From: Candidatus Kapaibacterium sp.
Lineage (GTDB): Bacteria > Bacteroidota > Ignavibacteria > Kapaibacteriales > UBA961
Assembly: GCA_046328995.1 (NCBI GenBank)
Contig: JAXLVN010000004.1
Span: 274,599 to 338,598, forward strand
Length of the DNA: 64,000 bases
Direction of reading: 5' to 3'
Made by a program: the position numbers and the translations under genes. Shown piece by piece: positions 3,977-61,025 of the stretch; the stretch's first letter is position 1, and each line of letters starts with the position of its first letter. Under the pieces are notes generated by a model. The model worked only from the letters and a program-made list of their open reading frames with translations. It was not told where the DNA came from and ran no database searches.

Positions 3977-5569
3977 CTATCGGCCGGCTACCATCATCGG
4001 TTGCGTTGCCGTGAAATTCCCTGCACGAAAACGGAAAAAATACGTGCCTTCCGGCAGGTACGACGCATCGACCCGGAGCGTATAATGTCCCGCATCCTGT
4101 GTCATCTGATTATCGAGCAGATCCTGTAGTACACGGCCACGCAGGTCTGTCAGACTCAGCGATACGGCCGAGGCAAACGGCACATCATAGCTGATACTCG
4201 TTATCGACGTCACGGGATTCGGGTAATTCTCATATAGCCGGAACCCGAGCGGTACGTCGGTGAGAGTATCGCGAGCGGAGGTCGTCGGAACATTAATAAC
4301 CGGCAATTGCTGGAATTCCTTGAGCATGACGGCTGACAGAGCTGGCTGCTGCGCACCGAACCATTGGGCAAGAACGGACGTGTACACCTGTCGGAAATCA
4401 TACTGCATCTTGAGGTTACCACGGTCAAGATTATTCATGTCGGGATTGATGCCGACAATTCCCGGACGAACATATTTGCCGAAAATGAACATCGGCGCGG
4501 CTGTTCCGTGATCGGTGCCTGCACTCGCATTCGAGGCGACTCTCCGACCAAATTCGGAAAAGGTCATTGCCAGTACTTTATCCTCAGCCCCAAGCTGCCG
4601 GATATCATCCAAAAACGCCGTAACAGCTTCCGAGAGCTTTTGAAGCAAGGTCGCATGATTACCCTTCGTCGTGTCACTCGCCGTTACCTGCGCCGAATGC
4701 GTGTCGAATCCACTTAAGGTCACCGAATAAATCCTCGTCTGTAATCCACCGCCAATGAGTCGGGCTACGATTTTTAATTGATCGGCCAGAGAATTACCGG
4801 TCGGATACGTGGCTTTGTTGCTTGCCTTCGATGCAGCATCTTTGATCTGCTTCGAATAAGCAAATGACTCAATCTGAATTTCCCGAATATACTTCAAGTC
4901 TTTGCCGAATTTCGTGTTCGGCGGGTCTTCAAACCCCGTCGTTCCCGTTCCGTTGACCAGTGTATAAAACGTATTCGGATCCTGCAATGCAATACCCATC
5001 GACTGTCCTGCGCCCTGCAGGGCAAGCGAAGACGAAGCGCCAATCTGAATTGCAAGCGGGTCGGGAGCAGAGGAATTCGGATAGCCGATAGGGTAATTGG
5101 GATAGACTTCACCGAGAAAGCGTCCTGCCCAGCCGGAGACGAGGTATTGATTGGAGTCGGAGCCGGACATGAAAATATCGGTCGAGCGGAAATGCGAGAA
5201 GTTGGAATTAGGATAGGTGACACCCTGAATGACCACTGCTTGTCCGTTGTCAAACAACGACTTAATGCCGGTCATTGCGGGATGGAGACCGGTCTTGTCG
5301 GTGAGCTTGAGCACCGATTGCTCGGCAATCATGATATTCGATCGGAGGGAGGAATAGGCAGAATATTGATCAAGGGAAATGACCGTATTGAGCCCGTCGT
5401 TTCCGCCGGTGAGCTGTATCAGCACGAGGATTCGATCGGTCGCTGCGAGTGTGGTCGCGAGGTCATTGCTCATCATATTCCGGCCATATGCTGTGCCGGG
5501 AAGGCCGCCGATGATAAACGGTGCCGCCAGCACGGGCGACAATTTCTGAATAAAGTCTCTGCGTTTCAT
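3977..5569 (-). CDS. DUF1501 family protein (sulfatase/alkaline-phosphatase-like fold) with a twin-arginine signal and a C-terminal T9SS (Por) sorting domain
   Basis: The N-terminus is MKRRDFIQKLSPVLAAPFIIGGLPGTAYG (RRxFIxK Tat motif). DUF1501 hallmarks are present (LIQLTGGNDGLNTVI, GFDTHSAQ, GTDHGTAAPMFIFG). The last ~80 aa are YPNPVTS...GTYFFRFRAG...MVAGR, typical of a T9SS CTD. Confidence 0.8.
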   Translation of the reverse strand: MKRRDFIQKLSPVLAAPFIIGGLPGTAYGRNMMSNDLATTLAATDRILVLIQLTGGNDGLNTVISLDQYSAYSSLRSNIMIAEQSVLKLTDKTGLHPAMTGIKSLFDNGQAVVIQGVTYPNSNFSHFRSTDIFMSGSDSNQYLVSGWAGRFLGEVYPNYPIGYPNSSAPDPLAIQIGASSSLALQGAGQSMGIALQDPNTFYTLVNGTGTTGFEDPPNTKFGKDLKYIREIQIESFAYSKQIKDAASKASNKATYPTGNSLADQLKIVARLIGGGLQTRIYSVTLSGFDTHSAQVTASDTTKGNHATLLQKLSEAVTAFLDDIRQLGAEDKVLAMTFSEFGRRVASNASAGTDHGTAAPMFIFGKYVRPGIVGINPDMNNLDRGNLKMQYDFRQVYTSVLAQWFGAQQPALSAVMLKEFQQLPVINVPTTSARDTLTDVPLGFRLYENYPNPVTSITSISYDVPFASAVSLSLTDLRGRVLQDLLDNQMTQDAGHYTLRVDASYLPEGTYFFRFRAGNFTATQPMMVAGR

Positions 5570-5636
5570 GATGAATTCCTTCTGTACAAGGATGATATAT
5601 AAGGGAATTAACTGTTGGGTGCTTTGCCGGAATCGT

Positions 5637-7247
5637 TTACATCATTTGAAATTCTGCCATGCGAAACATAAATTTCAGCAGGGCACTGAGCTTGCTTTTG
5701 ACGGCATTTACTTTTTGCGTGCTTGTCGGATTCTTGACGTACTCATTCCAGATGACGCCCCATTCGTAGTCCGGCACTCCGGGGAGCAGCGTATCGGTCA
5801 CAAGACTCGATACTTGCTTTTCGGTGAGCGGGAAGACAAAGAGATCGGCGGCAATATCCCTGATAAGTTGATAGGGGTCGGCAGGATTCGCGCTAACGGA
5901 TTTCACATACGAGAGCACATCGATGCCGGCTTTGGCACCGCTGACAGTGAATCCATTAACAAGTTGATCAGTAAAGCCGTTGCGATTCGGCAGTGTCGCA
6001 GAAGTGATCCATAATTCATAGAAATTCGGTGCCTGATAATAGGCCGCCCAGCCCGCTACGTTGGGATGCTCCATGAGCTCCATCTGCAAGCTTGCTGCAA
6101 TGCTGCGATACCGGTCATAAAAATTATAGGCTCCCAGCGAGTCCCACGGCATTCCGAGCGGGAAATGCTGCACGAGGCCGATGATAAAGTCGAGGGGGTT
6201 TTTAATCATCCCGCCGATGAGAAGCGGGTCATAAAAATGTGCGGAGGTAAAGAGTGCGTGAAGAACCGGCTCGACGGTGAAGTTGTTTGCTCGTAGAATT
6301 GCCGCAAGAGGTTGAATTACCAATGCTTCCGTCGCAGCATCTATTTCATAATGCACGAAATACCGATATAATTTCCGGCAAAAAAACAGGGCAGTTTCTT
6401 CCATGGAGAAGATCATTGCGATGAGATCCTGCACTTCGCTGTCACCGCCGGTCGTGCGCCCTTTTATGACGGCGTTATGAAAGCAGGACGAGAATTGCTT
6501 GTCCTTGCTGTCATGCCTATTTGCCGTGAATTTGCCGGTGGCCGAGAATTCATCGTCCGACCATCCGGTGAGGACGCGGGCTGCTGCCTGAACATCCTGC
6601 TCGGAGTAATGAGTATAATTTCCGGGGGCGATTTCGGGTCCTTTACCGATGGTGAAGAGTTCGAGTAATTCCCGCGCATAATTTTCATTCGGCTTTGTAT
6701 TGGTATTTGTACTTCCGTTGAGATAGCGGAGCATTGCGGGATCCTTGGTCACAGCCGTGACAAGCGAAGTAATATTTCCGAGGGCATTAGTGCGGAAGAG
6801 CACATTTTGCTTGTACATATAGCGGCTGTCATAGACGACTTCGGACTCGGAAACAAAATGATTGTGCCAAAAGACGGTCATTTTTTCGAGAATCGACGGA
6901 TTTGGCGTGGCGAGCCATTGCGTCCACCATGCTTTGATATAGCGGATATACATCGGGTCATTGGCACCGTCACGGGGGAATTCCAGCCAGGAAATTTCCG
7001 TACCGGGCACGGTGGGCTTGGGAATATTCGTTTTGGTATCCAAGAGTGTCGTCACGGCGGCATCCACCCCAAGTGCCGTAAATTCGGCAATTTTTGCTTT
7101 GGGGAATCCGAAGGTCAGCCGTCGGAGCAGGTGAGCTGCATGAAGCTCGGTAAATGGACCGCTGAATTTCGTGAGTTCGCCGGCTGCTGCCTGAGTCGTC
7201 TCGGCTTGACCGGAAAATTGAGCTTTCAAAAAGGAACGTCGATTCAT
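5637..7247 (-). CDS. DUF1800 family protein, the usual partner of DUF1501
   Basis: It carries the AAHLLRRLTFGF motif and an N-terminal MNRRSFLK. It is 536 aa and lies immediately upstream of, and co-directional with, the DUF1501 gene across a 67 nt gap. Confidence 0.8.
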   Translation of the reverse strand: MNRRSFLKAQFSGQAETTQAAAGELTKFSGPFTELHAAHLLRRLTFGFPKAKIAEFTALGVDAAVTTLLDTKTNIPKPTVPGTEISWLEFPRDGANDPMYIRYIKAWWTQWLATPNPSILEKMTVFWHNHFVSESEVVYDSRYMYKQNVLFRTNALGNITSLVTAVTKDPAMLRYLNGSTNTNTKPNENYARELLELFTIGKGPEIAPGNYTHYSEQDVQAAARVLTGWSDDEFSATGKFTANRHDSKDKQFSSCFHNAVIKGRTTGGDSEVQDLIAMIFSMEETALFFCRKLYRYFVHYEIDAATEALVIQPLAAILRANNFTVEPVLHALFTSAHFYDPLLIGGMIKNPLDFIIGLVQHFPLGMPWDSLGAYNFYDRYRSIAASLQMELMEHPNVAGWAAYYQAPNFYELWITSATLPNRNGFTDQLVNGFTVSGAKAGIDVLSYVKSVSANPADPYQLIRDIAADLFVFPLTEKQVSSLVTDTLLPGVPDYEWGVIWNEYVKNPTSTQKVNAVKSKLSALLKFMFRMAEFQMM

Positions 7248-11273: not shown

Positions 11274-12281
11274 ATGGAAGAACAGAAAAAACCCGTTATT
11301 TTAAGTGGAATCACGCCTTCCGGTGTGCTGATGATTGGTCATTATATGGGGGCAATCCGCAATTGGGTGGCGCTGCAGCACGAGTATGAATGTTTTTTTA
11401 TGGTGGCGGATTTACATGCAATTACCGTACGTCAGACGCCGGCCGATCTGCGCCGCCGCACACTCGATATTGCCGCCGGATATATTGCCTGCGGAATTGA
11501 CCCCGACGTGTGTACGCTGTTCGTACAGTCGCATGTACCTGAGCATACTCAGCTTACATGGGTGCTCGGCAGCTTAACCGGTATGGGCGAGGCGAGCCGG
11601 ATGACGCAATACAAGGAAAAATCAAGCGAAAATTCGGAGAATAATAATGTCGCGCTCTTTACCTATCCTGTTCTTATGGCAGCCGATATCCTCATTTATC
11701 AGGCAGATTTAGTACCCGTTGGCGATGACCAAAAGCAGCATCTTGAGCTCACGCGGAATCTGGCTGAACGGTTTAATTTCCGGTATTCGCCGACTTTTAC
11801 CGTGCCCGAACCCTTTATCCCGCCGGCAGGAGCGCGGGTGATGAGCTTGCAGGAGCCGAATAAAAAAATGTCCAAGTCCGATAAAAATGAAAAAGCTACG
11901 CTCTTTATCTCCGACTCGGACGATGCAATCCGCATGAAAATCAAGCGCGCCGTCACTGACTCCGGCACCGATATTCGATTTGATGAAAAAAATCGTCCGG
12001 GTGTGGCGAATCTGATGACGCTCTATTCGGCCGCGACCGGCAAGTCGAATGCAGAAATTGAACGTGAATTCGAAGGTCTCGGCTATGCAGAATTCAAAGA
12101 GGCAGCGGCAGAGGCGATGGTAGGATTCATGCGCCCGATGCGCGAACGTTTCCTCGAGCTCCGAAGTGATACCACGATGCTCAACGCCCTGCTCGCCAAA
12201 GGAGCAGAGACCGCGCGCAACCGCGCACGACGCACGCTGAGAAAAGTGTATAAGAAGGTAGGTTTTGCTGAATTAGGGTGA
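11274..12281 (+). CDS. trpS: Tryptophan--tRNA ligase
   Basis: Class I HIGH motif (TPSGVLMIGHYMG) and KMSKS motif (KKMSKSDKN) are present. The length of 335 aa is typical. Confidence 0.95.
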   Translation: MEEQKKPVILSGITPSGVLMIGHYMGAIRNWVALQHEYECFFMVADLHAITVRQTPADLRRRTLDIAAGYIACGIDPDVCTLFVQSHVPEHTQLTWVLGSLTGMGEASRMTQYKEKSSENSENNNVALFTYPVLMAADILIYQADLVPVGDDQKQHLELTRNLAERFNFRYSPTFTVPEPFIPPAGARVMSLQEPNKKMSKSDKNEKATLFISDSDDAIRMKIKRAVTDSGTDIRFDEKNRPGVANLMTLYSAATGKSNAEIEREFEGLGYAEFKEAAAEAMVGFMRPMRERFLELRSDTTMLNALLAKGAETARNRARRTLRKVYKKVGFAELG

Positions 12282-12302
12282 TCTAACCGTCGATTATACA
12301 AA

Positions 12303-12366
12303 GATTTACGCAGAGAACGATGAGATTGTTCTCTGCGCCCTTTGCGCCTTTGCGTTAAAATACGCA
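12303..12366. repeat. Palindromic REP/attC-like repeat, copy C (reverse orientation)
   Basis: CTCTGCGCCCTTTGCGCCTTTGCGTTAAAA is the reverse complement of the TTTTAACGCAAAGGCGCAAAGGGCGCAGAG core seen at 46025 and 47468. It starts 22 nt after the trpS stop. Confidence 0.8.
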
Positions 12367-12409
12367 TCAAAAGGATGAGTTAAGTAGAGAATCTAACAAA
12401 AAAACGAAA

Positions 12410-12583
12410 ATGAAAAATAAGAAAGAATATGTGGATATCGAAGATATACGTCCTTCAGAACCTCTTACTCCAATAGAAAAACAAGCTATAAGCGACTTTA
12501 TTAAACAACGAAAACTAGAAATCTCGACAAAAGGAGTTTCGTCTGAGCAAAATAGAGAAAAGCGGCAAAAAGTACCGGCATAG
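12410..12583 (+). CDS. Hypothetical small protein (57 aa) in an AT-rich insert bracketed by repeat copies C and D
   Basis: I translated ATG 12410 to TAG 12583 as MKNKKEYVDIEDIRPSEPLTPIEKQAISDFIKQRKLEISTKGVSSEQNREKRQKVPA. It is below the ORF-track length cutoff. Confidence 0.3.
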   Translation: MKNKKEYVDIEDIRPSEPLTPIEKQAISDFIKQRKLEISTKGVSSEQNREKRQKVPA

Positions 12584-12637
12584 ATGGGTGTAATGGTTCT
12601 ATCATGTGCCGTGTGTTTTTAACTCTTAAAAATAAAG

Positions 12638-12705
12638 GGTTACGCAAAGTGCGCTGAGAATATCCTCTGCGTCCTCTGCGCCTTTGCGTTAAAATAAACG
12701 CAAAT
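12638..12705. repeat. Palindromic REP/attC-like repeat, copy D
   Basis: TTACGCAAAGTGCGCTGAGAATATCC...TCTGCGCCTTTGCGTTAAAA. It abuts the stop codon of the minus-strand gene 12707..14653. Confidence 0.8.
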
Positions 12706-12706
12706 A

Positions 12707-14653
12707 TTACCACCCCACATCCACCTGGAAAATAAACTTCTGTTCGGCATTTCCCTCAATCTCACTTGTGCCGCTCCCGAGCGACGTCACGCTGTTCTTG
12801 GCGGTGACGGTGTAATTGGCTGCAAGCGACAACTGCGGTATCGGCTTGTAATTCAACAAAATAAACGACCTTGTGCCATTGCCGTAGAGAGCAGGATTCC
12901 CCAGCACGCCGGGCACGGACGGTTCGAATGTCCACCGCGCCGACGCATAGCTGTCGGTCGAAAAATACGCAATGCGTGCGCCTATTTTCCAGCGTTCGCT
13001 CCGCCACCAAATCTCGGCAAAACTCACAACACCCACTTCCCGCGGCTGCACACGTTCAAAGTCACAATACACCGCTTCCACGCGAAAGCGGGTGCGGATT
13101 TCCGGCGTTGCCTCATGCTGCACTTCCGTTCGAAGTGAAGTGACTGTGCGCTGATAGACGCTTCGCATGCCATCCTCGCCCGTGAAGACGTCCGTTTTAT
13201 TTTCCGTGTGGAAGCGCATCACCGCAAGTGTGGGACGGGTGATTTTCCACCGGCATTCGGCTAAAATATCGGCGCCGCGCGTGGGGGAGTACATGCCGAA
13301 TCGCGGCGTAAGAGATTGATACACATCAGCATAACCCATGAGTTCAAGCCCGGGCACGCTGCGCCAGAAGAGTCCTGCATAGAACCCTGCTTCATTGCTC
13401 GGCGAGGGGAATTCTCCGAAATTATTCCCGAAGGGCGAACGGAATTCCGGGGAAAAGTAGCGCACGCCGAGGGCTGATTTTACGTTTTTACCGGTGAATT
13501 CCATGCTGAATTTCACGCCATTATTCCCAAGTGCGTCGCGGCTGAATTCGCCAAGAAGAAGAGAATTGACACCCGTATATGCCCCATAAAGCGAGGATAA
13601 GGTGCCCGACTGCCCGGAAAAGACACTCGTCGAACTGCTCACAATCGGCCTCTCGTAGCGCAGGGAAAGTGCAGAGGCGCCCAGCGTCCATGCGGAGGAA
13701 ATAGTCCATTCTGCAATGAATCCTATGGCTTGTTCGCCCAGCGCGTTTCGTTTTGCAATCTCGGAAGGCGTTCGGAATAAACCACTTATATCGAACGAAG
13801 TAGCAATATTTTGTGCGGAATCAATCGACGCAGACCTACGAATTGATGAATAAAATCCTGTGATTTCCAGCAAAGAATTTTCTGAGAGTGATATCTTGCC
13901 TTCCACAGCCGCCCCTCGAAAGAATCGATATTCAATCGACGAGCGATACGGACTACTGCCGCTGCCCTGCTGAATGATCGGCGCAATGACTTCACTCCCT
14001 TTTTTTGCACCAAATCCTTGAGAAATAATACTTCCGAGACCGCTTTCGGCGGTGAAGTCACCGAGTACGACGCGGAAGGCATTATCCTTATACTCGGCAA
14101 AACCGCTCATAAAGTCGGTAAGTGAGCGTTCGCCTTGAGCTTTGGAGGCGGTGACACCTGCCGAGAAATTACCAATCCCGCCGGTGAGACGCTGATAGAG
14201 TGCGAGTGGCGAACCAAGAAAGGCGCTGTCCTGAATGCCTTTGATTTCTTGAAATCGGTCGTATACGCGCGTGCGGTAGCCGAGCCATGCCGGCTGTGTA
14301 TCGTGTGGTTTTTGGAGAACGACACATTTCTCGAAGAGGGCGAACTGTGCCTCCGAGAGCCGCAGCGAGTCGGCGAGGGCACGTTTGGTAATCTGCGGAT
14401 ACTGTTTACGTAATCGGACTAAGCGTCGTGCGTTAGCAATGGAGAGGCCCGGCAGGAAGAGCAATGTCCGGGGCTGTGCTGTCGGCAGTACGATCGGATG
14501 CTCGGAATAATACTCGATCGTGTTGAGCAGCGGCGCATCGTCGCTGTCGCGGCTAACGACTTCGAGAGCGGATTCTTCGGGAGAAGTGGCAGATGTGTCC
14601 TGAGCGGCAGCGGGAGCAAGGCACAGTAAAAGCAAGGCGAGGAATTTCTTCAT
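12707..14653 (-). CDS. Outer-membrane beta-barrel protein with an N-terminal ComEA-like helix-hairpin-helix DNA-binding motif
   Basis: The signal peptide is MKKFLALLLLCLAPAAAQ. An HhH pair (LLFLPGLSIANARRLVRLRKQYPQITKRAL...LRLSEAQFALF) resembles ComEA. The remaining ~500 aa show an amphipathic beta-strand pattern. Confidence 0.55.
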   Translation of the reverse strand: MKKFLALLLLCLAPAAAQDTSATSPEESALEVVSRDSDDAPLLNTIEYYSEHPIVLPTAQPRTLLFLPGLSIANARRLVRLRKQYPQITKRALADSLRLSEAQFALFEKCVVLQKPHDTQPAWLGYRTRVYDRFQEIKGIQDSAFLGSPLALYQRLTGGIGNFSAGVTASKAQGERSLTDFMSGFAEYKDNAFRVVLGDFTAESGLGSIISQGFGAKKGSEVIAPIIQQGSGSSPYRSSIEYRFFRGAAVEGKISLSENSLLEITGFYSSIRRSASIDSAQNIATSFDISGLFRTPSEIAKRNALGEQAIGFIAEWTISSAWTLGASALSLRYERPIVSSSTSVFSGQSGTLSSLYGAYTGVNSLLLGEFSRDALGNNGVKFSMEFTGKNVKSALGVRYFSPEFRSPFGNNFGEFPSPSNEAGFYAGLFWRSVPGLELMGYADVYQSLTPRFGMYSPTRGADILAECRWKITRPTLAVMRFHTENKTDVFTGEDGMRSVYQRTVTSLRTEVQHEATPEIRTRFRVEAVYCDFERVQPREVGVVSFAEIWWRSERWKIGARIAYFSTDSYASARWTFEPSVPGVLGNPALYGNGTRSFILLNYKPIPQLSLAANYTVTAKNSVTSLGSGTSEIEGNAEQKFIFQVDVGW

Positions 14654-31022: not shown

Positions 31023-31093
31023 TGGTTAAATTGGCAATCGTAGTAATATCGTTATGAATATAATAGTAACGTATGTTTGGAGAGAAACATGCT

Positions 31094-31201: not shown

Positions 31202-31252
31202 ATCCTTATAAATCTATTTTCGTGTAATTTATCAATAGTTGAATGAATTAAA

Positions 31253-33009: not shown

Positions 33010-33040
33010 ATATTTCTTCGTACTTTATCAAAGGATATGT

Positions 33041-33616: not shown

Positions 33617-33649
33617 TTTCTTGGTTCACAACTATAGTATCACATTCTA

Positions 33650-34225: not shown

Positions 34226-34334
34226 GCATTTCCCCGCCACGCAAATACATTGCCCAAAAAGCCGCTTGTACCCCCAAAGAGCGGCTTTTTTCGTAAATTG
34301 CACCCCATTATACCCACTTATCAAGGAAAAACTC

Positions 34335-35550: not shown

Positions 35551-35576
35551 GGAATATGCTACTTCCAAAAAAGTCT

Positions 35577-35856
35577 GTCATTCTGAGTGAGTCTTCGAGC
35601 GAAGAATCGACAAGAGCACTACGAACGTTGATGACGATTCTCGGATTTATTGGATTATAATCTGTTGAATAAGAACTCAGTTACAAGTAATCTTGAAGTA
35701 TGCCGATATGAAGTTAGATGCAAATATATACCAACAAAATAAACACATTCATCCTGAAACTGATTTGGTCGAAGTATCATAATGTGCTTCAATGTCATAA
35801 GATGTGACACCATTAGCAAGTGTCGATTCTTCAGTCGAAGACTCCTTCAGAATGAC
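35577..35856. mobile_element. MITE-like element, long copy (~37 bp TIRs flanking ~205 bp of AT-rich non-coding core)
   Basis: The left TIR begins at 35577 (GTCATTCTGAGTGAGTCTTCGAGCGAAGAATCGACAAG). The right TIR ends at 35856 (reverse complement GTCATTCTGAAGGAGTCTTCGACTGAAGAATCGACAC). There is no ORF inside. Confidence 0.7.
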
Positions 35857-35915
35857 ATACTGTTAACTCTATGTCCATAATTGATTTCCCTCAATGTACC
35901 TCAAAATAACTACAC

Positions 35916-41331: not shown

Positions 41332-41622
41332 ATGCACACACTCTTACGGCAATCACTCTTTTGGGATTCTAATCTTGAGTCGCTAGACCTCCAAAAGCAT
41401 AAGCGGAAAATTATCGTTCGCGTGCTTGAGCGCGGAACGCTTCAGGATTGGCAGGCAATTAAAGAGCTCTATGGCAAGGATACTATACGCGATGAAGTAC
41501 TGCAAGCCCGTTCGCTCGATAAATACGTGCTCGCGTTTTGTTCGGCATATTTTGATGTACCCAAGGAGGACTTTCGATGCTATACACTGATTCAGTACCA
41601 AAAGAAGCACTGGAATTATTAA
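41332..41622 (+). CDS. Hypothetical protein, putative cognate antitoxin or regulator of the AbiEii-like module
   Basis: It is 96 aa and directly upstream of, and possibly overlapping, the nucleotidyltransferase gene. It has no recognisable motif beyond a possible helical HTH-like stretch. Confidence 0.35.
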   Translation: MHTLLRQSLFWDSNLESLDLQKHKRKIIVRVLERGTLQDWQAIKELYGKDTIRDEVLQARSLDKYVLAFCSAYFDVPKEDFRCYTLIQYQKKHWNY

Positions 41623-42200
41623 TTCGTCTTATGAAACTTGATGCATTGCAACCATTTGCACTCGCTGGTGGAACTGCTCTCGCTTTGCGTTTCGGGCATC
41701 GAGTGTCGTATGATATTGATTTATTCACGTCTGTGGGATTTGATGCGCAAGCACTTGCTGAGAGCATTCAGCGGAGCGAACCTATTAGTCAATTCCGTGT
41801 TCAACCCAATACTATCAATGCACAGGTAGCAGGTGTAAAGCTGGATTGCCTCGCACATCGGTACAATCAACTTGGGGCAATCGAAGTAATTGATGGTATT
41901 CGCCTCTATTCTCTTCCGGATTGTGTAGCAATGAAGCTATCAGCAGTTGGAGGTCGTGGCGCGCGGAAAGATTTCTATGATATTGCTGCTCTTATGCAGG
42001 TAATGACACTACCCGAAATGGTTGAATGCTTTGAAAAGAAATACCCCAATGCCGATAGCTTACATACTATTCTAGCCCTAACGTATTTTGATGATGCTAA
42101 TCTTGAAGAAGAGGTTACACTTAGCGCCACATCACCTGCTCAACTACAATCATGGCACGCAGTCCAATCGTTACTTGTACGTGAAGTGAAGAAACTATGA
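41577..42200 (+). CDS. AbiEii/AbiGii-family nucleotidyltransferase toxin (DUF1814)
   Basis: Nucleotidyltransferase motifs are present (FALAGGTALALRFGHRVSYDIDLF). An alternative start at 41631 would avoid the overlap with the upstream ORF. Confidence 0.65.
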   Translation: MLYTDSVPKEALELLIRLMKLDALQPFALAGGTALALRFGHRVSYDIDLFTSVGFDAQALAESIQRSEPISQFRVQPNTINAQVAGVKLDCLAHRYNQLGAIEVIDGIRLYSLPDCVAMKLSAVGGRGARKDFYDIAALMQVMTLPEMVECFEKKYPNADSLHTILALTYFDDANLEEEVTLSATSPAQLQSWHAVQSLLVREVKKL

Positions 42201-42550: not shown

Positions 42551-45500
42551 ATGAAATTTTCTACTCTTTGCGTGCTTTTAGCGTGCTTTCTCTCTCTGCG
42601 TGCTGCCGGCCAATCGCTTTCCGTCTTTGGTATTGATGAGAGTCAATTCCCTACGGTCAAAGCGAAGATCTATGCCTTTCAAAAGGATGGAAGTCCTGTG
42701 CCGAATCTCACACCTGCCAAGGTCATTGTGACGGAAAACGGCATATCGCGAACTGTAACGTCCGTGACTTGTCCTGCGCCAAACGTCAAGCAGATATCCC
42801 TCACACTGAGCATCGATGTATCGGGTTCGATGGCAGCCACCGCCGACCCTTTTTCCGAACAGCCCATGCTCCTTGCCAAGGAATATGCACGGTCACTAGT
42901 GGATGCAATGGCCTCGCCGCCGTCGCAGATTACCCTGCAGATGGCTGATCGTAAGGGATATATTCTCCATGACCTTTCAACAGATAAGTCCAAAATTCTT
43001 CAGACTATTGCCGGGCTGTCACCGGCCGGGGGGAATGACTATCTCGATCAATTACTCCATCCGCAGACCGGTGCGCTTGTGCTTGCGCGCGGAGGAGAGT
43101 TCAAGCGCCATGTTCTTGTCGTGACCGATGGACAGTGGGGACGTCTTTCACCGGCCGACTCGGCGCAGTGTGTGGCCTTGTGCAAGGCAGATAGTATCAC
43201 GTTCCATGTGGTGCTTTTAGGTGGCAATCAAGCCGATGAACGTGGTATTATGACCACGTTGCAAGGCATTGCATCCGCAACCGGCGGCGTGGTAGTGACG
43301 AGCATTCGCACGTCCGCCGATGCACGGAAATTTGCACTTGAATTACACCAAAAGATACAGGGCGGTGAGCCATGTGAAATTACCTGGATGTCCGACTCTT
43401 CCTGCACGCGTGAACGCCGGGTAGCCGTGTCGATTCCGGTTACTGCCGTGCTGGCAGAGGCGATGTATCTTGCGCCGGATAATTCCTTTATCGATCTTGC
43501 GTTGAGCACCTCTTCTCTGGCGTTCGGGGCGCTTCCTCCCAAGACTACGGCGCAGCAGACAGTGACCATTACAGCGAGAAATTACCCGGTCATTGTCAGG
43601 AAAATTACCTCTTCTGACCTGCGCTTCTCGGTGATTACCTACGGAGGCACGGCGCCGCCATTTGTGCTGCAACCGGGTAATTCCCGCATTCTCACCGTGC
43701 AATTTGCCCCAACCGATTCGGGGTATTCTTTCTCTGAAATACAGATTGCTCATAATGCCTGCCTGCCGACGACGGTGCAGGTCTCGGGCGGCTTTCCGTT
43801 TAAGAGGGCAAGTGTACCGTCACTCCGACTTATCACGCCGAATGGCGGTGAACGCTATGGTGTAGGCGAGAGACCGTCGGTTGAGTGGGCAGGAGTCTTG
43901 CCGGAAGACACGATGAGAATTGAAGTGAGCACCAATAATGGCGACAGCTGGACCACCCTCGCAGAGCGTGCGACCGGACTGACGCGCACATGGCAGGTGC
44001 CCTATAGAGTGAGCGACAGCTGCCGCATGAGAATTACCCAACTCCGCCCGACGAACTCCGTTGCGACCACGGTGGTCTTCCCCAAAAGCAGGATGCCGCA
44101 GTGGAATTCAACGGGTAATCAACTCATGACCGTGGCGCTGACCGATAACTCCTCCAAAGTCTGGTATTCGGAGTCCGGTCTGCCAATTACATCCTATCGC
44201 GGACCCGGCAGCAGACTCACGCGTATCGGGTGGAATACAGCCAAGCGCTTGATTGCGATGGAATATGACGGTAATTCAATTTCAATTTTTAATGATTCAA
44301 CGGGTCAGAAAGTAATTACAAATTATGGACTCTTTGAATTGTGGAATCCCGCCGGCGATAGAATCCTCACCCGCGACGGATATATCTTGGATGAGAATGC
44401 CTTCTTAATCCGCCGCCTCGAAGACCCGTTTGAAGACTATGGCGCCGACTCGTTCCGCGTGTTCACAATGCATAAATGGAGTCCGACACGCGAAAATGTC
44501 ATCGCCGTGCAAAAAGGTGTAGCCGGCGGCGGTGATTCGCTTCGAATGTGGGATGTGTCGAAGGAAACATCCCAACCCGCCAAACTCATCAAGTCGGTAG
44601 CGGCACATAATGGAACGATTTACGCGTGTGAATGGAGTCCGTCCGGAAATCGTATCGCCTCAATCGGCGGTGATTCAACGGGTGTGGTCTATAATTTTAT
44701 CCTCAATGCTCCCATACGCTTAGTCGGTCATACAGCAGAAGTACGTTCGCTTGCCTGGAGCGCAGGTGACCGCTATGTGGCAACGGGCAGTGAAGATAAC
44801 ACGGCTAAGGTTTGGCATACGGGAACAGGGGAAATCAAGCGAACGCTTGATCATGGCGGCGCAGTGAGCGCGGTGGCGTTTAGCTTGGATGGTCGCTTGC
44901 TCGCAACGGGTGGAAAGGATTATATCATTAAGATATGGGAGGTAGAGACCGGTGGGCTGCTGCGTACGTTGCGTGGTCATACGAATGCTATCCTGACGCT
45001 TGGGTTTAGTCCCGAAGGGCGGCGCCTTATCAGCACGAGCAGCGACAGCACGGTGCGTATTTGGGATATTGATTCGACAGAAATTCAGCAGGTAATTTCT
45101 GAGAATGTCTGGAAAATCGAGCAGCCGCAGCTTCAAACAAATGAAATAGACTTTCAGCAGGTGCAGTTCGGCAGTGCGAAGGATTCGGTCGTCAAAAACT
45201 TCGTTAAGAACACCGGCACTCGACCTGTTCTCATCGACAGTATCCGCATTCAGGGCGGCAATGCAGAAGACTTCTCGGCGACGAATGGTTTTTCGGGGTT
45301 CATGCTGCAGTCCGGCGAGAGCCGCACGGTTGAGGTACAGTTCAAGCCCACAAAAGTCGGCAAGCGGACTTCCGTTGCGGAGGTGTATGTCGGTGGATTT
45401 AGTTTCCCGATACTGCTCAGCGGCGAGGCAGTATTAACGGCTGAGGTGTTGTCGGCGGATATCGACTTCCGCAAAGTAGCTCTTGGCTCGGCAAGAGATA

Positions 45501-46015
45501 CGACCGTGAATGCAATTATTAAAAATTCTAATACCTTACCTCTAACGGTGAGTTTCGCTCTCGCGCTCGACACGGCGCAGTTCAAAGTGCTCACGGGTGG
45601 CGGTATTGTGACGCTCGCGCCGGGTGAGTCCCGCACGATTTCGCTCAGATTCGCACCGACCTCGATTGGCAAGACGAGCGCGCAGCTTGTGTGCTCATAC
45701 AATGGCGCAGGGTCACCGGCGAAAATCGCACTCCTCGGCGAAGGCATTGATAAAGTAGGCGTTGAGGAAGAGGTGAAGCAGGGCGAGCGCGCCACGATTC
45801 ACCCGAATCCCGCGACAAACGCGCTGGAAATCATCCGCACAGGTGAGTTCACGGTAGAAATCACCGACCTCCTCGGTCGCGCGCTCCCGCTTGCGGTGAA
45901 GCACTTTACAAATAGCGCGCATATTCCGGTCGAGGAAGTTCCGGAAGGTGTGTATTTCGTGAGAATTCACGCGCATGGGGATGTGCAGATGATACCGGTG
46001 GTGGTGCGGCATTAG
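42551..46015 (+). CDS. Large secreted multidomain protein: vWA domain, Ig/ASH-like beta-sandwich domains, a WD40 repeat block and a C-terminal T9SS sorting domain
   Basis: It has a signal peptide, a vWA MIDAS (LSIDVSGSMAA), WD40 repeats (GHTAEVRSLAWS...ATGSEDNTAKVWH; LATGGKDYIIKIWE; ISTSSDSTVRIWD) and a CTD (IHPNPATNALEI...GVYFVRIHAHGDVQMIPVVVRH). Confidence 0.75.
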   Translation: MKFSTLCVLLACFLSLRAAGQSLSVFGIDESQFPTVKAKIYAFQKDGSPVPNLTPAKVIVTENGISRTVTSVTCPAPNVKQISLTLSIDVSGSMAATADPFSEQPMLLAKEYARSLVDAMASPPSQITLQMADRKGYILHDLSTDKSKILQTIAGLSPAGGNDYLDQLLHPQTGALVLARGGEFKRHVLVVTDGQWGRLSPADSAQCVALCKADSITFHVVLLGGNQADERGIMTTLQGIASATGGVVVTSIRTSADARKFALELHQKIQGGEPCEITWMSDSSCTRERRVAVSIPVTAVLAEAMYLAPDNSFIDLALSTSSLAFGALPPKTTAQQTVTITARNYPVIVRKITSSDLRFSVITYGGTAPPFVLQPGNSRILTVQFAPTDSGYSFSEIQIAHNACLPTTVQVSGGFPFKRASVPSLRLITPNGGERYGVGERPSVEWAGVLPEDTMRIEVSTNNGDSWTTLAERATGLTRTWQVPYRVSDSCRMRITQLRPTNSVATTVVFPKSRMPQWNSTGNQLMTVALTDNSSKVWYSESGLPITSYRGPGSRLTRIGWNTAKRLIAMEYDGNSISIFNDSTGQKVITNYGLFELWNPAGDRILTRDGYILDENAFLIRRLEDPFEDYGADSFRVFTMHKWSPTRENVIAVQKGVAGGGDSLRMWDVSKETSQPAKLIKSVAAHNGTIYACEWSPSGNRIASIGGDSTGVVYNFILNAPIRLVGHTAEVRSLAWSAGDRYVATGSEDNTAKVWHTGTGEIKRTLDHGGAVSAVAFSLDGRLLATGGKDYIIKIWEVETGGLLRTLRGHTNAILTLGFSPEGRRLISTSSDSTVRIWDIDSTEIQQVISENVWKIEQPQLQTNEIDFQQVQFGSAKDSVVKNFVKNTGTRPVLIDSIRIQGGNAEDFSATNGFSGFMLQSGESRTVEVQFKPTKVGKRTSVAEVYVGGFSFPILLSGEAVLTAEVLSADIDFRKVALGSARDTTVNAIIKNSNTLPLTVSFALALDTAQFKVLTGGGIVTLAPGESRTISLRFAPTSIGKTSAQLVCSYNGAGSPAKIALLGEGIDKVGVEEEVKQGERATIHPNPATNALEIIRTGEFTVEITDLLGRALPLAVKHFTNSAHIPVEEVPEGVYFVRIHAHGDVQMIPVVVRH

Positions 46016-46024
46016 GTCTGGAAA

Positions 46025-46108
46025 GATTTTTAACGCAAAGCCGCAAAGGGCGCAGAGAATATCCTTTGCGCACTTTGCGTAACCCTTTGCGAGTTTTGCG
46101 GTTAAATT
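46025..46108. repeat. Palindromic REP/attC-like repeat, copy A (forward)
   Basis: TTTTTAACGCAAAGCCGCAAAGGGCGCAGAGAATATCCTTTGCGCACTTTGCGTAACCCTTTGCGAGTTTTGCGGTTAAAT. It starts 10 nt after the stop of the vWA-WD40 gene. Confidence 0.85.
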
Positions 46109-46191
46109 TGGGTTGGGTTGTGTTGGGGGATGATTCTATTCTTGTACCAACCGCGATAATGAGAACACACGTTTAAAAACCAAGCTGAACT

Positions 46192-46827
46192 ATGAAATTC
46201 AAGCCTCTTACATACATATTGATGGGAGTATTCTCGATTATACAATTTGCCGGTTGCTCTCATAGATTAACTAAGGATAAGAACCTTCTGCATACTTTAC
46301 AGACATATAGTAGTTCCAATGATTTTACTAATTTGAATAACAAAATCAGTAGTGATTTGAAAGAGGATACAACTCATTATTTTCTTATTTCAATCTCACG
46401 ATACGAATCCACATGCTATCCCCCTCCTTGGCTAAATAGGTTTACAACTCAGTATCTTTTTGTTTATATTGAAGAGCCAGTTATATACCCTGATGGCGAA
46501 CATCATTATGATTTTTATTGGAAAGTCTATAAGTTTACAAATTATTCTGACAAAAAGTATTTAGGAAAAGTGAGTGGAGGAGCTTACAATTTAATAGTGA
46601 ACAAACTGTACGATATACTCAACAATAGACCTGAAGCAAATATCAGGGACAAACTTGGATATGGTTTAGAATTTTCAACATGGATCAATTACAACGGGAG
46701 AAAGATTACAAATAATATAATTAACGGTGGAGACATGGAGAATACGTATGTCAATTTATTTACTGTAGTTAAATCAGCAGTTTATGAATTAGAACTTGAG
46801 CAGTACTATCAAGGGCTTGAGAAGTAA
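46192..46827 (+). CDS. Hypothetical lipoprotein encoded in a low-GC islet
   Basis: The signal peptide with lipobox is MKFKPLTYILMGVFSIIQFAGCS. The gene is AT-rich and Asn/Tyr/Lys-rich, and sits between repeat copies A and B. Confidence 0.5.
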   Translation: MKFKPLTYILMGVFSIIQFAGCSHRLTKDKNLLHTLQTYSSSNDFTNLNNKISSDLKEDTTHYFLISISRYESTCYPPPWLNRFTTQYLFVYIEEPVIYPDGEHHYDFYWKVYKFTNYSDKKYLGKVSGGAYNLIVNKLYDILNNRPEANIRDKLGYGLEFSTWINYNGRKITNNIINGGDMENTYVNLFTVVKSAVYELELEQYYQGLEK

Positions 46828-47467
46828 ACTCTTCAATACTACACCACAATGTGATGATTTTCGATGCTATATTCCCAATACATCCATGAATCCGATTGAA
46901 AAGACATTTGTCAAGATCGTACTTGCACTGTGCTCGATTCATGTACTTTGGTTTTTGGTGTACGGCATGTTTATCGTTACGTGTTTGCTTGTCAATGGGC
47001 ATTTGCCGACATCGGATGTTTTTGAACCATTATGGTTGCGGGAGTTTTTGCATAGTATCACCGGGAGTATTTACATTGAAGTTGTTTAGTATTTTCAACG
47101 GAGAGCGAAACATTGCTTTACCTCCATAGTTGAGGGCGGCTAAGACGCCTGTTTTTCATTTGGAAATACAGCATACCGGTCATAGTCAGCATGTTTTCTA
47201 CCCCAAAAATCGGCTCTAAAAATAATCCTAAACAACTTCATCGTTATAATGCTCTGTTTTTTCAATTTCTTTATTAGCATCACAGCACTTTTGGGTATGA
47301 TAGTCAAAACGAAGAACAAGCGGATTCTGATAGGCACGGTTTTGTTTGTCTTGGTAAATGTGGGGTTCATTTATTTTGTTACTTCGGACCCGGGGTCAGT
47401 GCTTTGGTGCGGTGAATAATCAATATGGTAGCATTCAACGTGAAATTTACATATTGATGGTACAAAA

Positions 47468-47550
47468 AGATTTTTAACGCAAAGGCGCAAAGGGCGCAGA
47501 GAATCACTTTGCGAACTTTGCGTAAACCATAGCGAAATTTGCGGTTAATT
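47468..47550. repeat. Palindromic REP/attC-like repeat, copy B (forward, direct with respect to copy A)
   Basis: It is ~88% identical to copy A over ~80 bp. It ends with TTTGCGGTTAATT and lies 48 nt upstream of pfk. Confidence 0.85.
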
Positions 47551-47597
47551 AAATTATATTTCATAAAAAAACTACTTATTATTACAGGAAAATCTCT

Positions 47598-48698
47598 ATG
47601 GCAATTAGAAAAATAGCTTTGAATACCGGTGGCGGTGATGCTCCGGGGTTGAACGCCGTGATACGCTCGGCAGTGCATTCTGCGTTGCATCGCGGGTGGG
47701 AATGTGTGGGTATTCGTGATGGATACAATGGCATCCTGCAGCCCGACGAATACCCGCACAATGGGCTTATACCATTGACTCATCAGTCGGTGCGCGGGAT
47801 AACGCATTTGGGTGGCACGATACTCGGCACTACGAATCGTGGTAATCCTCTCCATTATCCGGTGCGGCAGGCGGACGGCTCGTATATTGAAATCAATCGT
47901 GTCGATGAATTGCTCGGACGGTTCCGCGAAGAGGGAATTGACGCGCTCGTTGCGATCGGTGGAGATGGTTCGCTCAAAATCGCTAATGCCTTTGTCGAGA
48001 AAGGGTTCCCGGTGGTCGGCGTGCCGAAAACGATTGACAATGATATCTTTGGTACTGAGGTTACGTTCGGTTTTGACAGCGCCGTCAGCTTTGCAACCGA
48101 GTGTATCGACCGCCTGCATTCGACCGCTGAGGCGCATCATCGGGTGATGGTGGTGGAGGTGATGGGACGGTATGCAGGGTGGATAGCTCTTCATGCAGGA
48201 GTAGCAGGCACGGCTGATGCGATTCTCATTCCGGAAATACCGTATTCGATTGATAAAATTGCGGCGAAGGTGCAGGAGCGAGACGCGCGCGGACGCCATT
48301 TCTCGATTATCGTGGTGGCAGAAGGCGCCAAACCGGTCGATGGTGAAACGTCGATTATCGGGAAGTCGATTGGTCAAGCCGAACGTCTCGGAGGTGCCGG
48401 CGAACGTGTGGTGAAGCAGATTGAAGCCCTCACCGGAAAAGAGTCACGGCTGGTCGTGCTCGGGCATTTATTGCGCGGCGGTGCTCCGACGACATTTGAC
48501 CGGTTGCTTTCGCTCAGGTTTGGCGCTGCTGCGGTACGTTCTCTTGCCGACGGTATGTCCGGCGTAATGGTCGGTCTCGAATCATCGCACATTCATTGTG
48601 TTCCGTTCAGTGAAGTAGCCGGCAAGATGCGTGGCGTGCCTACGACTTCGGATATTATCCTCACGGCGAAGGATTTGGGGATTACGTTTGGGGATTAG
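47598..48698 (+). CDS. pfk: 6-phosphofructokinase, PfkA family (ATP- or PPi-dependent cannot be distinguished by eye)
   Basis: Motifs GGGDAPGLNAV, GGDGS and PKTIDNDI are present, along with MGR. The protein is 366 aa. Confidence 0.9.
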   Translation: MAIRKIALNTGGGDAPGLNAVIRSAVHSALHRGWECVGIRDGYNGILQPDEYPHNGLIPLTHQSVRGITHLGGTILGTTNRGNPLHYPVRQADGSYIEINRVDELLGRFREEGIDALVAIGGDGSLKIANAFVEKGFPVVGVPKTIDNDIFGTEVTFGFDSAVSFATECIDRLHSTAEAHHRVMVVEVMGRYAGWIALHAGVAGTADAILIPEIPYSIDKIAAKVQERDARGRHFSIIVVAEGAKPVDGETSIIGKSIGQAERLGGAGERVVKQIEALTGKESRLVVLGHLLRGGAPTTFDRLLSLRFGAAAVRSLADGMSGVMVGLESSHIHCVPFSEVAGKMRGVPTTSDIILTAKDLGITFGD

Positions 48699-48732: not shown

Positions 48733-48830
48733 TAAACCTCAGTAGGAGAGCAGAAACCTTAGGTGTTTATTAAACCTCAGTAGGAGAGCAGAAAACCTTA
48801 GGTATTCATTAAACCTCAGTAGCGCAAGGA
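48733..48830. repeat. Tandem repeat, ~38-39 bp unit in 2.5 copies
   Basis: TAAACCTCAGTAGGAGAGCAGAAA(A)CCTTAGGT + 6 nt variable occurs at 48733 and 48771. A partial third unit follows at 48810. Confidence 0.8.
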
Positions 48831-59329: not shown

Positions 59330-60853
59330 ATGCTTATCGATCAGCTCAAAGCACTCGTACAGATAGTACAGAGAACCGGGAGCGAATTACCTGAGGACTT
59401 CTCAGTGCCGCCCGGCAAAAAAGAGTCGCTTGTTCTGCAATTTTACCGTTTGCTGCTCAGCGATGATACTCCCGAGGATGAAAGTGAGCTAGCAGCAATA
59501 CTCCTCGGTGATAAAAACAGCAATAGTCACTACCGAGTTCTCAAAAACCGCATTAAAAAGCAGCTCACGGCGGCGGTCCTGAATCTGAGCGTGAATACAG
59601 AATCATTTTCCGATGTGTTTAGAGCATGGTATGGCGGTAGCCGCGAACTCATTGTAGCAGAAGTGCTTACCAAGCTCGGAAAGCATACAGCCGGGATTGA
59701 AATTATCCAGGAAATTTACAAGCAAGCGACGTATTATCATCTTACTGACCTGCAAATCCGCGCCCTTGACCACCTGCGCTCGCATTACGCACTCACCGGC
59801 GAGAAAAAAAAATATCACGATACGAAAGCACTGCTCAGTAGCGCTCTTGCAGTACGTCAGGCAGAAATCGATGCGGTCAGTCATTACGAAGATGTGACGA
59901 TTCTCTACGCCAACAAACACTCCGAGCGTCCCGAAAACTTACCCTTTGCCCGCGAAAAATTACGTCTGATACGTATATTATTTGATCAGTATGACAGCTA
60001 CAAAATCAAAGATCGCTATTGGGCGCTCGCCTCGCTTATCGGGCAAATTGATCTTAATTACGACACGGTCATGGAGTCAACGGAGGAAGCAATTAGCTAT
60101 CTGAAGGAGCATCCTCACCTCGTAGGTAAGAATTTGCTCGGAATCTATATGTCCGAAAAAATACTCATCTGTTTCTCCCACCGCAAGTACGACGAAGCGC
60201 GCGCCGCAATTGAAGAGTGTAAGCCGGTAACTACTCCCAATACCGGTACATGGCTCAGTCTTAAAATGACGGAAACGCTTCTCAATCTTCACACTTGCCG
60301 CGAGCGTGAGGCATGGGAAATTGTGCGTCAGGTCAAAAGCGCCCTCAAAGAATCTTCGGGCGGAATGGAGCGCTACGGCATTGAATGGAAAATTCTCGAA
60401 GGGTATTGTTACTACGCCTGCATGACCGCTACGCCGCCGCCAAGTGAGGACGACATGCCGTTCTTACCCGACCCCGTCCGTGTCTTCGCCGGCGGTTTCC
60501 TCGAATTCTTCGATGATAAAGAAGGCGCGAATCTCTCGATGCTGCTCTGCCATATTCTATTAATATCGCTCTCGCCGGACTCCAAAACAGACTTCTCGAA
60601 TAAAATTGCCCTCCTCGATCGGTATCGCCTGCGGAATTTAAAGAATCGACAATCGCAGCGCGGCGCATACTTTATCGAACTCCTGAGAGCAATGGTACGC
60701 GCCGATTACAACCGTGCCACGACCATTCGCCTCGCCAAGCCCATTCTCGAAAAAATGCAGGCAATCACTATCTGCGAGAATTATGAAATACTTCCGTTTG
60801 AAAAGACATGGCACGCGCTCGTGGAGCGGATGACGGTGAAGGTAAAAGGATAA
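59330..60853 (+). CDS. Hypothetical all-alpha protein (about 507 aa)
   Basis: It is helix-rich with no recognisable catalytic motif. The start could be ATG 59330 or GTG 59318. Confidence 0.5.
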   Translation: MLIDQLKALVQIVQRTGSELPEDFSVPPGKKESLVLQFYRLLLSDDTPEDESELAAILLGDKNSNSHYRVLKNRIKKQLTAAVLNLSVNTESFSDVFRAWYGGSRELIVAEVLTKLGKHTAGIEIIQEIYKQATYYHLTDLQIRALDHLRSHYALTGEKKKYHDTKALLSSALAVRQAEIDAVSHYEDVTILYANKHSERPENLPFAREKLRLIRILFDQYDSYKIKDRYWALASLIGQIDLNYDTVMESTEEAISYLKEHPHLVGKNLLGIYMSEKILICFSHRKYDEARAAIEECKPVTTPNTGTWLSLKMTETLLNLHTCREREAWEIVRQVKSALKESSGGMERYGIEWKILEGYCYYACMTATPPPSEDDMPFLPDPVRVFAGGFLEFFDDKEGANLSMLLCHILLISLSPDSKTDFSNKIALLDRYRLRNLKNRQSQRGAYFIELLRAMVRADYNRATTIRLAKPILEKMQAITICENYEILPFEKTWHALVERMTVKVKG

Positions 60854-60865
60854 CATCGCCATCTC

Positions 60866-60905
60866 CGCGACCTTTGCGAAACCTTTGCGTGCTTTGCGGT
60901 TAATC
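60866..60905. repeat. Palindromic REP/attC-like repeat, partial copy E (right half)
   Basis: CGCGACCTTTGCGAAACCTTTGCGTGCTTTGCGGTTAAT lies 13 nt after the stop of gene 59330..60853. Confidence 0.7.
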
Positions 60906-61025
60906 AGCGCTATGCGCAAAAATCCATCCCGAAAATCCAGAACACCGCACACCCCGATTATTTTTCGTAATTTCGCGCTGCAATTCTTCTAATTTCCTTG
61001 AATCATCATTCGTGTGCGATGCGCT

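Follow-up and report, generated by a model that had tools for sequence, protein, structure and literature searches.

The locus described here lies in a stretch of 64,000 nucleotides (hereafter the window) from Candidatus Kapaibacterium sp. (GenBank assembly GCA_046328995.1, contig JAXLVN010000004.1, positions 274,599 to 338,598), and it consists of a short array of AT-rich genes placed between a gene coding for a vWA-WD40 protein (WD40 in what follows) and the gene of the ATP-dependent 6-phosphofructokinase (pfk). Read from left to right, it is composed of WD40, a copy of an imperfect palindromic repeat termed R, a lipoprotein gene (lipo211), a small membrane-protein gene (c132) interrupted by a MITE (miniature inverted-repeat transposable element), a second copy of R, and pfk (Table 1). 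The two R copies, A and B, are on the same strand, and they are 88-89% identical over about 85 nt, with their starts separated by 1444 bp. The segment enclosed by them (46111-47465) has a GC content of 0.362 compared with 0.486 (sd 0.033) in windows of the same size (z = -3.7), and it is the lowest-GC segment of the 64 kb, every non-overlapping window being higher. An initial annotation had described an AT-rich segment between two palindromic copies in the same orientation, and this description is borne out. It had also proposed that both GC and codon usage be compared with the rest of the DNA: the deviation in base composition is real (lipo211 has a GC of 0.324, z = -5.4 against 37 window genes, and a GC3 of 0.311, z = -2.9), but synonymous-codon likelihood in lipo211 is unremarkable (z = 1.2), and therefore the deviation concerns mainly base and amino-acid composition.

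To judge from its sequence, lipo211 is a genuine lipoprotein gene, as had been annotated. The encoded protein has a signal peptide and lipobox (MKFKPLTYILMGVFSIIQFAG followed by C) in which G21 and C22 are invariant in an alignment of five members, the others being 33-95% identical to it. The two short open reading frames (ORFs) previously read after this gene are not genes in their own right. The one on the plus strand (46796..47089) and a further ORF at 47249..47419 are the two halves of c132, split by the MITE, and the one on the minus strand (47140..47370) is spurious and spans the insertion. The MITE carries terminal inverted repeats of 12-13 nt (GAAGTTGTTTAG / CTAAACAACTTC) unrelated to R. 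Removal of the 165-nt insertion yields a 122-aa ORF colinear with the gene of a related locus (L197); c132 is unbroken in L197 and in another relative, L148, and the empty MITE site is visible in L197. Six Logan contigs end at 47106/47107, 30 nt inside the MITE. These ends are due to this second, unrelated element, which is probably multi-copy since the contigs break within it.

Table 1. Positions of the features of the array, of the copies of repeat R and of related elements (handles beginning with L denote loci other than the window)
Feature	Sequence	Position	Strand	Remarks
vWA-WD40 protein gene	window	42551..46015	+	left anchor; 1154 aa
R copy A	window	46022..46110	+	imperfect palindrome; 7 nt past WD40 stop codon
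Leader	window	46111..46191	+	accompanies R and lipo211
lipo211	window	46192..46827	+	211-aa lipoprotein; lipobox FAGC
c132, 5' part	window	46886..47076	+	small membrane-protein gene; no R between c132 and lipo211
MITE	window	47077..47241		162 bp plus 3-nt target duplication (CAT)
c132, 3' part	window	47242..47419	+	includes ORF 47249..47419
R copy B	window	47466..47552	+	right arm decayed in part; 46 nt 5' of pfk
pfk	window	47598..48698	+	right anchor; ATP-dependent 6-phosphofructokinase
R copy C	window	12278..12368	-	at trpS 3' end; left arm whole, right arm degenerate
R copy D	window	12615..12712	-	with copy C encloses an AT-rich stretch of about 250 bp
R half copy (right arm)	window	60843..60907	+	immediately past stop of 511-aa ORF
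Module X	L148rc	301-384		none of the module X copies in window
Module X	L197rc	658-738		
Module X	L166rc	4836-4920		
Module X	L129	3016-3098		
26-mer element (example)	L201	1796-2320		
26-mer element (example)	L119	2359-2570		
26-mer element (example)	L171	10532-10625		

Nine alleles of the gap between WD40 and pfk were obtained from metagenome or metagenome-assembled genome (MAG) loci of relatives, whose pfk is 84.6-96.8% identical to that of the window and whose last 600 nt of WD40 are 88.6-93.6% identical. The window locus itself is present, 100% identical, in several metagenomes (exact-protein look-ups), and a search of genome contigs with the PFK protein gave, among the matches listed, only distant PFKs (70% identity or less) and no orthologous locus. 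The 90% cluster of the PFK protein includes members labelled Ignavibacteria bacterium and Candidatus Kapaibacterium sp., which places the organism among Kapabacteria/Ignavibacteria-like bacteria. With r standing for the pfk-proximal repeat, the relatives are arranged as follows: R, lipo218, R, lipo171, R, lipo211, pfk, with no R before pfk (L097); WD40, R, lipo171, c113, r, pfk (L166 and L211); c132, R, c160, r, pfk (L197); R, c75, c132, R, pfk (L148 together with L093); WD40, R, c162, c102, c132 and onwards (L129); and WD40, R, a frameshifted lipo171, R, c160, r, pfk (L213 and L214). A more distant locus, L212 (GCA_016720145.1; about 78-86% identical), has WD40, an R relic, a 285-aa secreted ORF, an r relic and pfk, and in L092, with a pfk 99.97% identical to that of the window, a different upstream sequence is followed by a divergent palindrome (R') and pfk. 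The WD40 gene adjoins the array also in L129, L166, L211, L212 and L213.

At every array allele R has the orientation of the genes. In the arrays, R copies number two to four, all on one strand and spaced by 0.75-1.45 kb, and cassettes number one to four; the cassette ORFs all have a GC content of 0.27-0.38 against about 0.50 for the genome. Their products are mostly secreted or membrane-bound: apart from lipo211 there are other lipoproteins and small multi-pass membrane proteins, as well as a 113-aa protein of the cytoplasm, and Pfam gave no match for any of the cassette proteins. No cassette copy was found outside the WD40-pfk site. The initial annotation had looked to orthologous loci for an empty site with a single repeat; none occurs among the alleles, every relative having some cassette. 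Its idea of an exchangeable cargo module agrees well with the comparison, in which the nine relatives carry different AT-rich genes between the same anchors, mostly separated by R. These loci show the gap to be an old hypervariable hotspot, with a different set of AT-rich ORFans in each strain. The hotspot is already present, with decayed R relics, in L212, and the window displays one of its states and not a recent insertion. The recent acquisition proposed earlier is not upheld for this reason, and also because the lipo211 genes of the window and of L097 share 97.2% identity, against 96.0% for the adjacent pfk.

Movement of one cassette can be followed between L213 and L197. The c160 gene and its leader show 0 mismatches over about 800 aligned nt (99.8% identity over the 483 nt of the ORF alone), compared with 96.8% identity for pfk of the same two loci (16/500 positions differ). 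R itself differs at 3 positions within its left 50 nt or so; the identical tract opens after these, still inside R, and it ends about 45 nt before r; the genes located 5' of R are different, namely the frameshifted lipo171 in L213 and c132 in L197. This shows that the c160 cassette moved between lineages recently, with the left crossover placed inside R. A tract starting there is the pattern expected from a homologous crossover within R.

The homology blocks common to the alleles open at R and continue through the leader into the gene. Related to this, homology between the window and L097 opens at the start of R, crosses the leader and closes at the lipo211 stop codon. Downstream of c132 in L197 stands the same type of R as upstream of c160 in L213, and it differs from the R following c132 in the window or in L148. 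On these comparisons the type of R is linked to the downstream gene (c160, lipo211, lipo171) and not to the upstream one. R units are also gained and lost alone: L097 is devoid of r, with both flanks retained as in L197 and L166, and at the lipo171-c113 junction of L166 the sequences that elsewhere precede and follow R are joined directly. There is no R at the lipo211-c132, c75-c132 and c162-c102 junctions. A leader module of about 84 nt (module X, CATAC..GCATCTGCACGATGATGCAGAGGATGCTGTGTAG..) recurs 5' of several cassette genes in the related arrays (Table 1) and is also found truncated before some R copies. An apparent likeness between this module and the WD40 gene's 3' end was considered and discarded, being weak in DNA and absent in protein.

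As far as the repeat is concerned, nhmmer detected five copies at three loci within the 64 kb, and a 34-nt pattern of the left arm has three matches in the window compared with 0.00 expected from 100 shuffles. Copies A and B fold into predicted hairpins of -37.3 kcal/mol (z = -4.5) and -28.0 kcal/mol (z = -3.9), respectively. The left arm is made of three CGCARAG heptads (AACGCAAAG-SCGCAAAG-GGCGCAGAG) and the right arm of four CTYTGCG units, which explains a near-continuous stem of about 26 bp with a one-sided bulge of 12 nt; no clear central spacer can be distinguished, and a single G bulge adjoins the terminal TTAAC/GTTAA pairing. Among 13 copies of the lineage, the left arm is kept as sequence rather than as structure, and both arms have changed together solely in the divergent R' of L092 (AACCGCAAATTCGCAAATT ... 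AATTTGCGAATTTGCGGTT). The AT-rich stretch between copies C and D holds a 57-aa ORF (12410..12583, plus strand). Rfam scans of the window and of the array, and likewise of eight related loci, gave no match to R at either gathering or E-value thresholds. A Bacteroidetes-type promoter at the 3' end of R (TAAATTTG) was rejected by eye, the spacing to the upstream TTTG being 13 or 25 nt instead of 19-21.

R is part of a family not restricted to this lineage. The 26-nt left arm (AACGCAAAGSCGCARAGGRCGCAGAG) is present in 109 JGI metagenome contigs (L098-L206), the GC contents of which range between 0.35 and 0.72. Many of these contigs carry it twice in inverted orientation, with a variable core of about 60-250 nt in between, or as a compact hairpin of 80-95 nt, and a single detectable unit was found at 72 of the 108 loci scored. 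The elements bounded by the 26-mer are non-coding, measure 80-300 bp and vary in the number of heptads (examples in Table 1). Clustering of the neighbours of the 109 loci revealed no protein family recurring within 2.5 kb. A scan of IMG/VR gave one match only, which argues that R is not phage-borne, and no mention of the R sequence was found in the searchable literature. Several features used to recognise MITEs are seen in R: it is short and non-coding, has inverted ends, occurs in dispersed copies and is polymorphic for presence and absence. From its sequence and distribution, R would be a local subfamily of a widespread element resembling MITEs and the REPINs derived from repetitive extragenic palindromic (REP) sequences, with arms built of tandem CGCARAG heptads. 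A gene for the REP-associated tyrosine transposase (RAYT, a Y1 transposase) is absent from the scanned ORFs of the window.

Regarding the function of the cargo, the initial annotation supposed that the lipoprotein could be surface-exposed or of immunity type. Neither Pfam nor NCBIfam gave a match to lipo211, and word-indexed homologue searches retrieved near-identical relatives only. An exhaustive HMMER search found three distant relatives with 35% identity (E = 1e-20 to 2e-22), hosted by lower-GC Bacteroidota/Ignavibacteria MAGs. One of these proteins, P0002 (35% identical, E = 2e-22), is encoded in L207 (GCA_018266765.1, JAFDZU010000024.1) by a gene that shares 4 nt with the end of a 344-aa ORF (4970..6004), overlapping its stop. 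The latter begins with an RHS repeat-associated core (TIGR03696, E = 4e-6; 27.1 bits, under the cut-off of 32.5) and contains HELGH, a metallopeptidase-type (HExxH) motif. Two further Rhs-core modules of L207 (48.9 and 43.8 bits) are each followed by a small secreted protein or lipoprotein ORF. A toxin-core module followed by a small gene is the usual layout of orphan pairs made of an Rhs C-terminal toxin (Rhs-CT) and its immunity protein. Hardly any relatives of the Rhs-CT toxin domain came up in the word-indexed homologue search.

Because its homologue overlaps the stop of an Rhs-core/HExxH module, lipo211 is probably an orphan immunity gene, an assignment that we hold at a little better than even odds in view of one cognate context. 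The target of such immunity would most likely be an Rhs-delivered HExxH toxin acting in the periplasm. The immunity half of the earlier supposition is in this way plausible. The relative in L209 belongs to an island that also encodes a WD40 lipoprotein together with an AAA_15 ATPase, and the one in L210 lies 3' of a sugar kinase gene. Structure prediction of lipo211 was moderate (predicted local distance difference test, pLDDT, of 70 for one of five models).

The reading that we prefer, with a probability of roughly 0.55, is that the locus is a hypervariable accessory-gene array, probably of immunity type, whose genes are reshuffled as homologous recombination acts through REPIN/MITE-like repeats. 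Portable homology would be supplied by R, by the leaders held in common and by the conserved anchors, and on it homologous recombination with transformed or otherwise imported DNA could swap, delete and stack cassettes. R itself would then be no dedicated recombinase site but a repeat of selfish or structural nature, and the array would act as a store of immunity or surface genes.

A number of observations weigh against this proposal. With respect to the mechanism, we infer homologous recombination from one identity tract and from mosaic junctions, and site-specific action by a recombinase encoded elsewhere may also be at work. As regards the repeat, no compensatory base changes were found in R (0/20 pairs among the 13 lineage copies), no clean target-site duplication is seen at the L097/L197 site, and no cognate transposase was identified. 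Besides, every full-length R copy of high score that the JGI scan recovered from relatives, four in number (L129, L148, L166 and L197), belongs to this array, which would also fit a locus-specific role of the subfamily. Concerning immunity, the assignment derives from a single cognate context (L207, the same as L208), the other members of the lipo211 family (L209, L210 and the arrays) are orphans, and the 64-kb window has no toxin gene. The structural check called for earlier yielded no significant fold neighbour of lipo211 in the PDB. Finally, searches gave neither informative homologues nor evidence of function for the remaining eight cassette families.

A different explanation, which we consider unlikely, is that R plays no part in gene turnover, being either a hairpin with a regulatory or structural task (stabilising mRNA, terminating transcription or carrying a promoter) or a selfish repeat, neutral in effect, that builds up in AT-rich spacers, and that crossovers occur only in the WD40 and pfk anchors. 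The position of R directly past stop codons, not only that of WD40 but also those of a 648-aa and the 511-aa ORF, would be in accordance with this idea, as would the several junctions without R and the conservation of the left arm as sequence instead of structure. In addition, most cassettes have diverged to the same extent as the flanks (lipo211, with the 97.2% given above, and lipo171, with 95.5-97.7%, against 95-96.8% for pfk). However, the c160 crossover made use of R or of the sequence just after it and not of an anchor, since the 5' genes differ, and the block homologies between strains open at R repeatedly. A regulatory function also gains little from the repeat itself, in which no U-tract terminator was found and in which a sigma-70 promoter scan gave 8 sites against 6.6 in shuffles, that is, no excess.

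Slightly more doubtful is an integron-like array without a nearby integrase, in other words a cluster of attC sites lacking integron-integrases (CALIN), where R would be an attC-type site folded as single strand and IntI would be encoded elsewhere in the genome. The general layout is reminiscent of such arrays: palindromes of about 85 nt on the same strand, 85-93% identical and at the spacing indicated above, separate co-oriented ORFans whose content depends on the strain. R also begins and ends in AAC...GTT (TTTTAAC matches the attC consensus RYYYAAC at 6/7 positions and GTTAAAT matches GTTRRRY at 7/7), it has one-sided bulges, and integrons and CALINs have been reported in Chlorobi and Ignavibacteriae (PMC9024848). 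Nevertheless, Pfam scans detected no integrase, transposase or recombinase among about 47 larger ORFs of the window, all of them beyond its first 3.9 kb, which is poor in ORFs. According to precomputed Pfam tables there is none within 10 kb in L212 and L213 either, except for an IS110 element past pfk in L212, and no recombinase families are listed within 10 kb in L081. The association of R with the downstream ORF is contrary to what is expected of attC, which should accompany the upstream gene. If the array is read on the opposite strand, the c160 tract should hold the whole R, whereas it starts inside R and not at GTT. Furthermore, the stem of nearly continuous tandem heptads has no recognisable unpaired central spacer, and R is gained or lost by itself and is missing from some gene junctions. 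The 26-nt arm is common to contigs of very different GC content, unlike attC sites, in which little is conserved beyond the triplets (PMC4889954). The integron-type cassette mechanism put forward by the initial annotation is accordingly not supported.

A bolder proposal, to which we give still less credit, is that R and the leader together serve as recombination site for an integron-like platform of gene capture in bacteria of the Fibrobacteres-Chlorobi-Bacteroidetes (FCB) group, with the site, unlike that of integrons, 5' of each gene and with the recombinase elsewhere or without any. Such a platform would store orphan immunity genes at a fixed chromosomal dock. If this were true, the 26-nt heptad arm would mark a pan-bacterial family of such sites and not a mere selfish repeat. 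By far the least probable explanation is a composite MITE transposon, in which two R copies act as outer inverted ends and a transposase supplied in trans moves the R-gene-R unit: each R does hold both inverted-repeat arms, the same arms bound the 80-300-bp non-coding elements of other taxa, and passenger units bounded by MITEs were reportedly described by Delihas in 2011, but the array occupies the same WD40-pfk site in all nine relatives with no cassette copy elsewhere, no target duplication surrounds the R...R unit and no transposase family recurs near the motif (109 loci).

Several other observations concern the surroundings of the array. The C-terminal residues of the WD40 protein (VYFVRIHAHGDVQMIPVVVRH) look, by eye, like a C-terminal sorting tail of the type IX secretion system (T9SS). 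Upstream of its gene, a DUF6922 and AbiEii pair is located in the window (41332-42200) and likewise in L213, and the same spot in L212 (1794-4712) is occupied by an NTP_transf_2/Polbeta protein and DUF2281; this module looks like a second variable spot beside the array. On the other side, just 3' of pfk, the window has two direct repeats of 30 nt (AAACCTTAGGTRTTYATTAAACCTCAGTAG) with 39 nt between them (48754-48822). Directly past pfk, L212 contains an IS110-family transposase (DEDD_Tnp_IS110 and Transposase_20; 11457-12753) that the window does not have. L092, 99.97% identical through pfk, diverges again (L092:3181-4340) from window position 50639, with a 311-aa ORF in place of the window gene coding for a 218-aa Cys-rich secreted protein.

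Further away in the window, a second family of palindromic repeats (TGTCATTCTGA...GAAGAATCGA) is present at 31085-31217, 35568-35612 and 35811-35872, and an inverted pair of this family encloses the stretch of low GC at 35.6-35.8 kb. Positions 32437-34232 hold three units in tandem, each about 607-610 bp long (repeat families D2, D3 and D7), which look like a row of three paralogous small genes. In the first 3900 nt neither strand has an ORF exceeding 216 aa, and Rfam gave no match there; this part may be a decayed gene or non-coding DNA. A Bro-N domain gene of low GC (0.41) at 10115-10969, between the gene of a T9SS-tailed protein and trpS, is probably another foreign insertion.

If the shuffling by homologous recombination proposed above is correct, an uncultivated lineage of Kapabacteria/Ignavibacteria keeps a small, reshuffled store of foreign-looking and probably toxin-immunity genes, and this store would be maintained without the dedicated recombinase that defines integrons and the rAID-1 clusters of Bacteroidales. 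Short hairpin repeats and ordinary homologous recombination would then suffice for a cassette array. The Rhs-CT HExxH module of JAFDZU010000024.1 and P0002 make a candidate toxin/immunity pair, for which lipo211 could be a cross-protector. Variable arrays of immunity genes or ORFans and hairpin repeats are both already familiar; what is probably new is the combination of a recombinase-less, repeat-delimited accessory array, probably of immunity genes, with a fixed chromosomal dock. The most unusual by-product of the analysis is the family of heptad-arm repeats, conserved across very different genomes.

Among the systems described, the closest to this array is rAID-1 (recombinase-associated acquired interbacterial defence) of Bacteroidales, which consists of small-gene arrays of skewed G+C with intergenic repeats 'reminiscent of integrons' and with orphan immunity genes (Ross et al. 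2019, bioRxiv 10.1101/471110). Those arrays are headed by a conserved tyrosine recombinase of the XerD family, and AID clusters have been described on mobile elements (bioRxiv 10.1101/471110). Like rAID-1, the array studied here is AT-rich, repeat-separated and strain-variable. Unlike it, the present array is devoid of a recombinase in the scanned ORFs, is found between the same core genes in every relative and has few cassettes, with a repeat that is genome-wide and cross-taxon; and as for immunity genes, a toxin-adjacent homologue was found for lipo211, a single cassette family out of about nine.

With the sedentary chromosomal integrons and CALINs (Cury et al. 2016, PMC4889954; IntegronFinder 2.0, PMC9024848) the array has in common the same-strand AAC/GTT palindromes at cassette spacing, the co-oriented ORFans, the high identity of repeats within an array and the turnover from strain to strain. 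It departs from them in that no IntI was found and in the properties of R, which is tied to the downstream gene, consists of tandem heptads, is dispersed beyond the arrays and undergoes insertion and deletion alone. R resembles REPIN/REP sequences and MITEs as a short, non-coding, intergenic hairpin with many copies and presence/absence polymorphism. The differences from REPIN/REP are that neither a RAYT or other transposase partner nor a target duplication was identified for R, and that its 26-mer, unlike species-specific REPs, is conserved across contigs of such diverse GC content.

Arrays of orphan toxin C-terminal regions and immunity genes also occur 3' of rhs, cdi or type VI secretion system (T6SS) effector genes, for instance in V. 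cholerae. The array of the window is similar to the rhs orphan arrays as a strain-variable stack of immunity-type genes, and the P0002 homologue is found in an array of that kind (L207); unlike them, it contains no toxin fragments or toxin-core remnants and adjoins no toxin or secretion locus. In Neisseria, the term 'minimal mobile element' refers to a site between conserved genes at which differing genes are swapped by homologous recombination, and the array between WD40 and pfk is comparable to this idea, with variable genes between conserved flanks.

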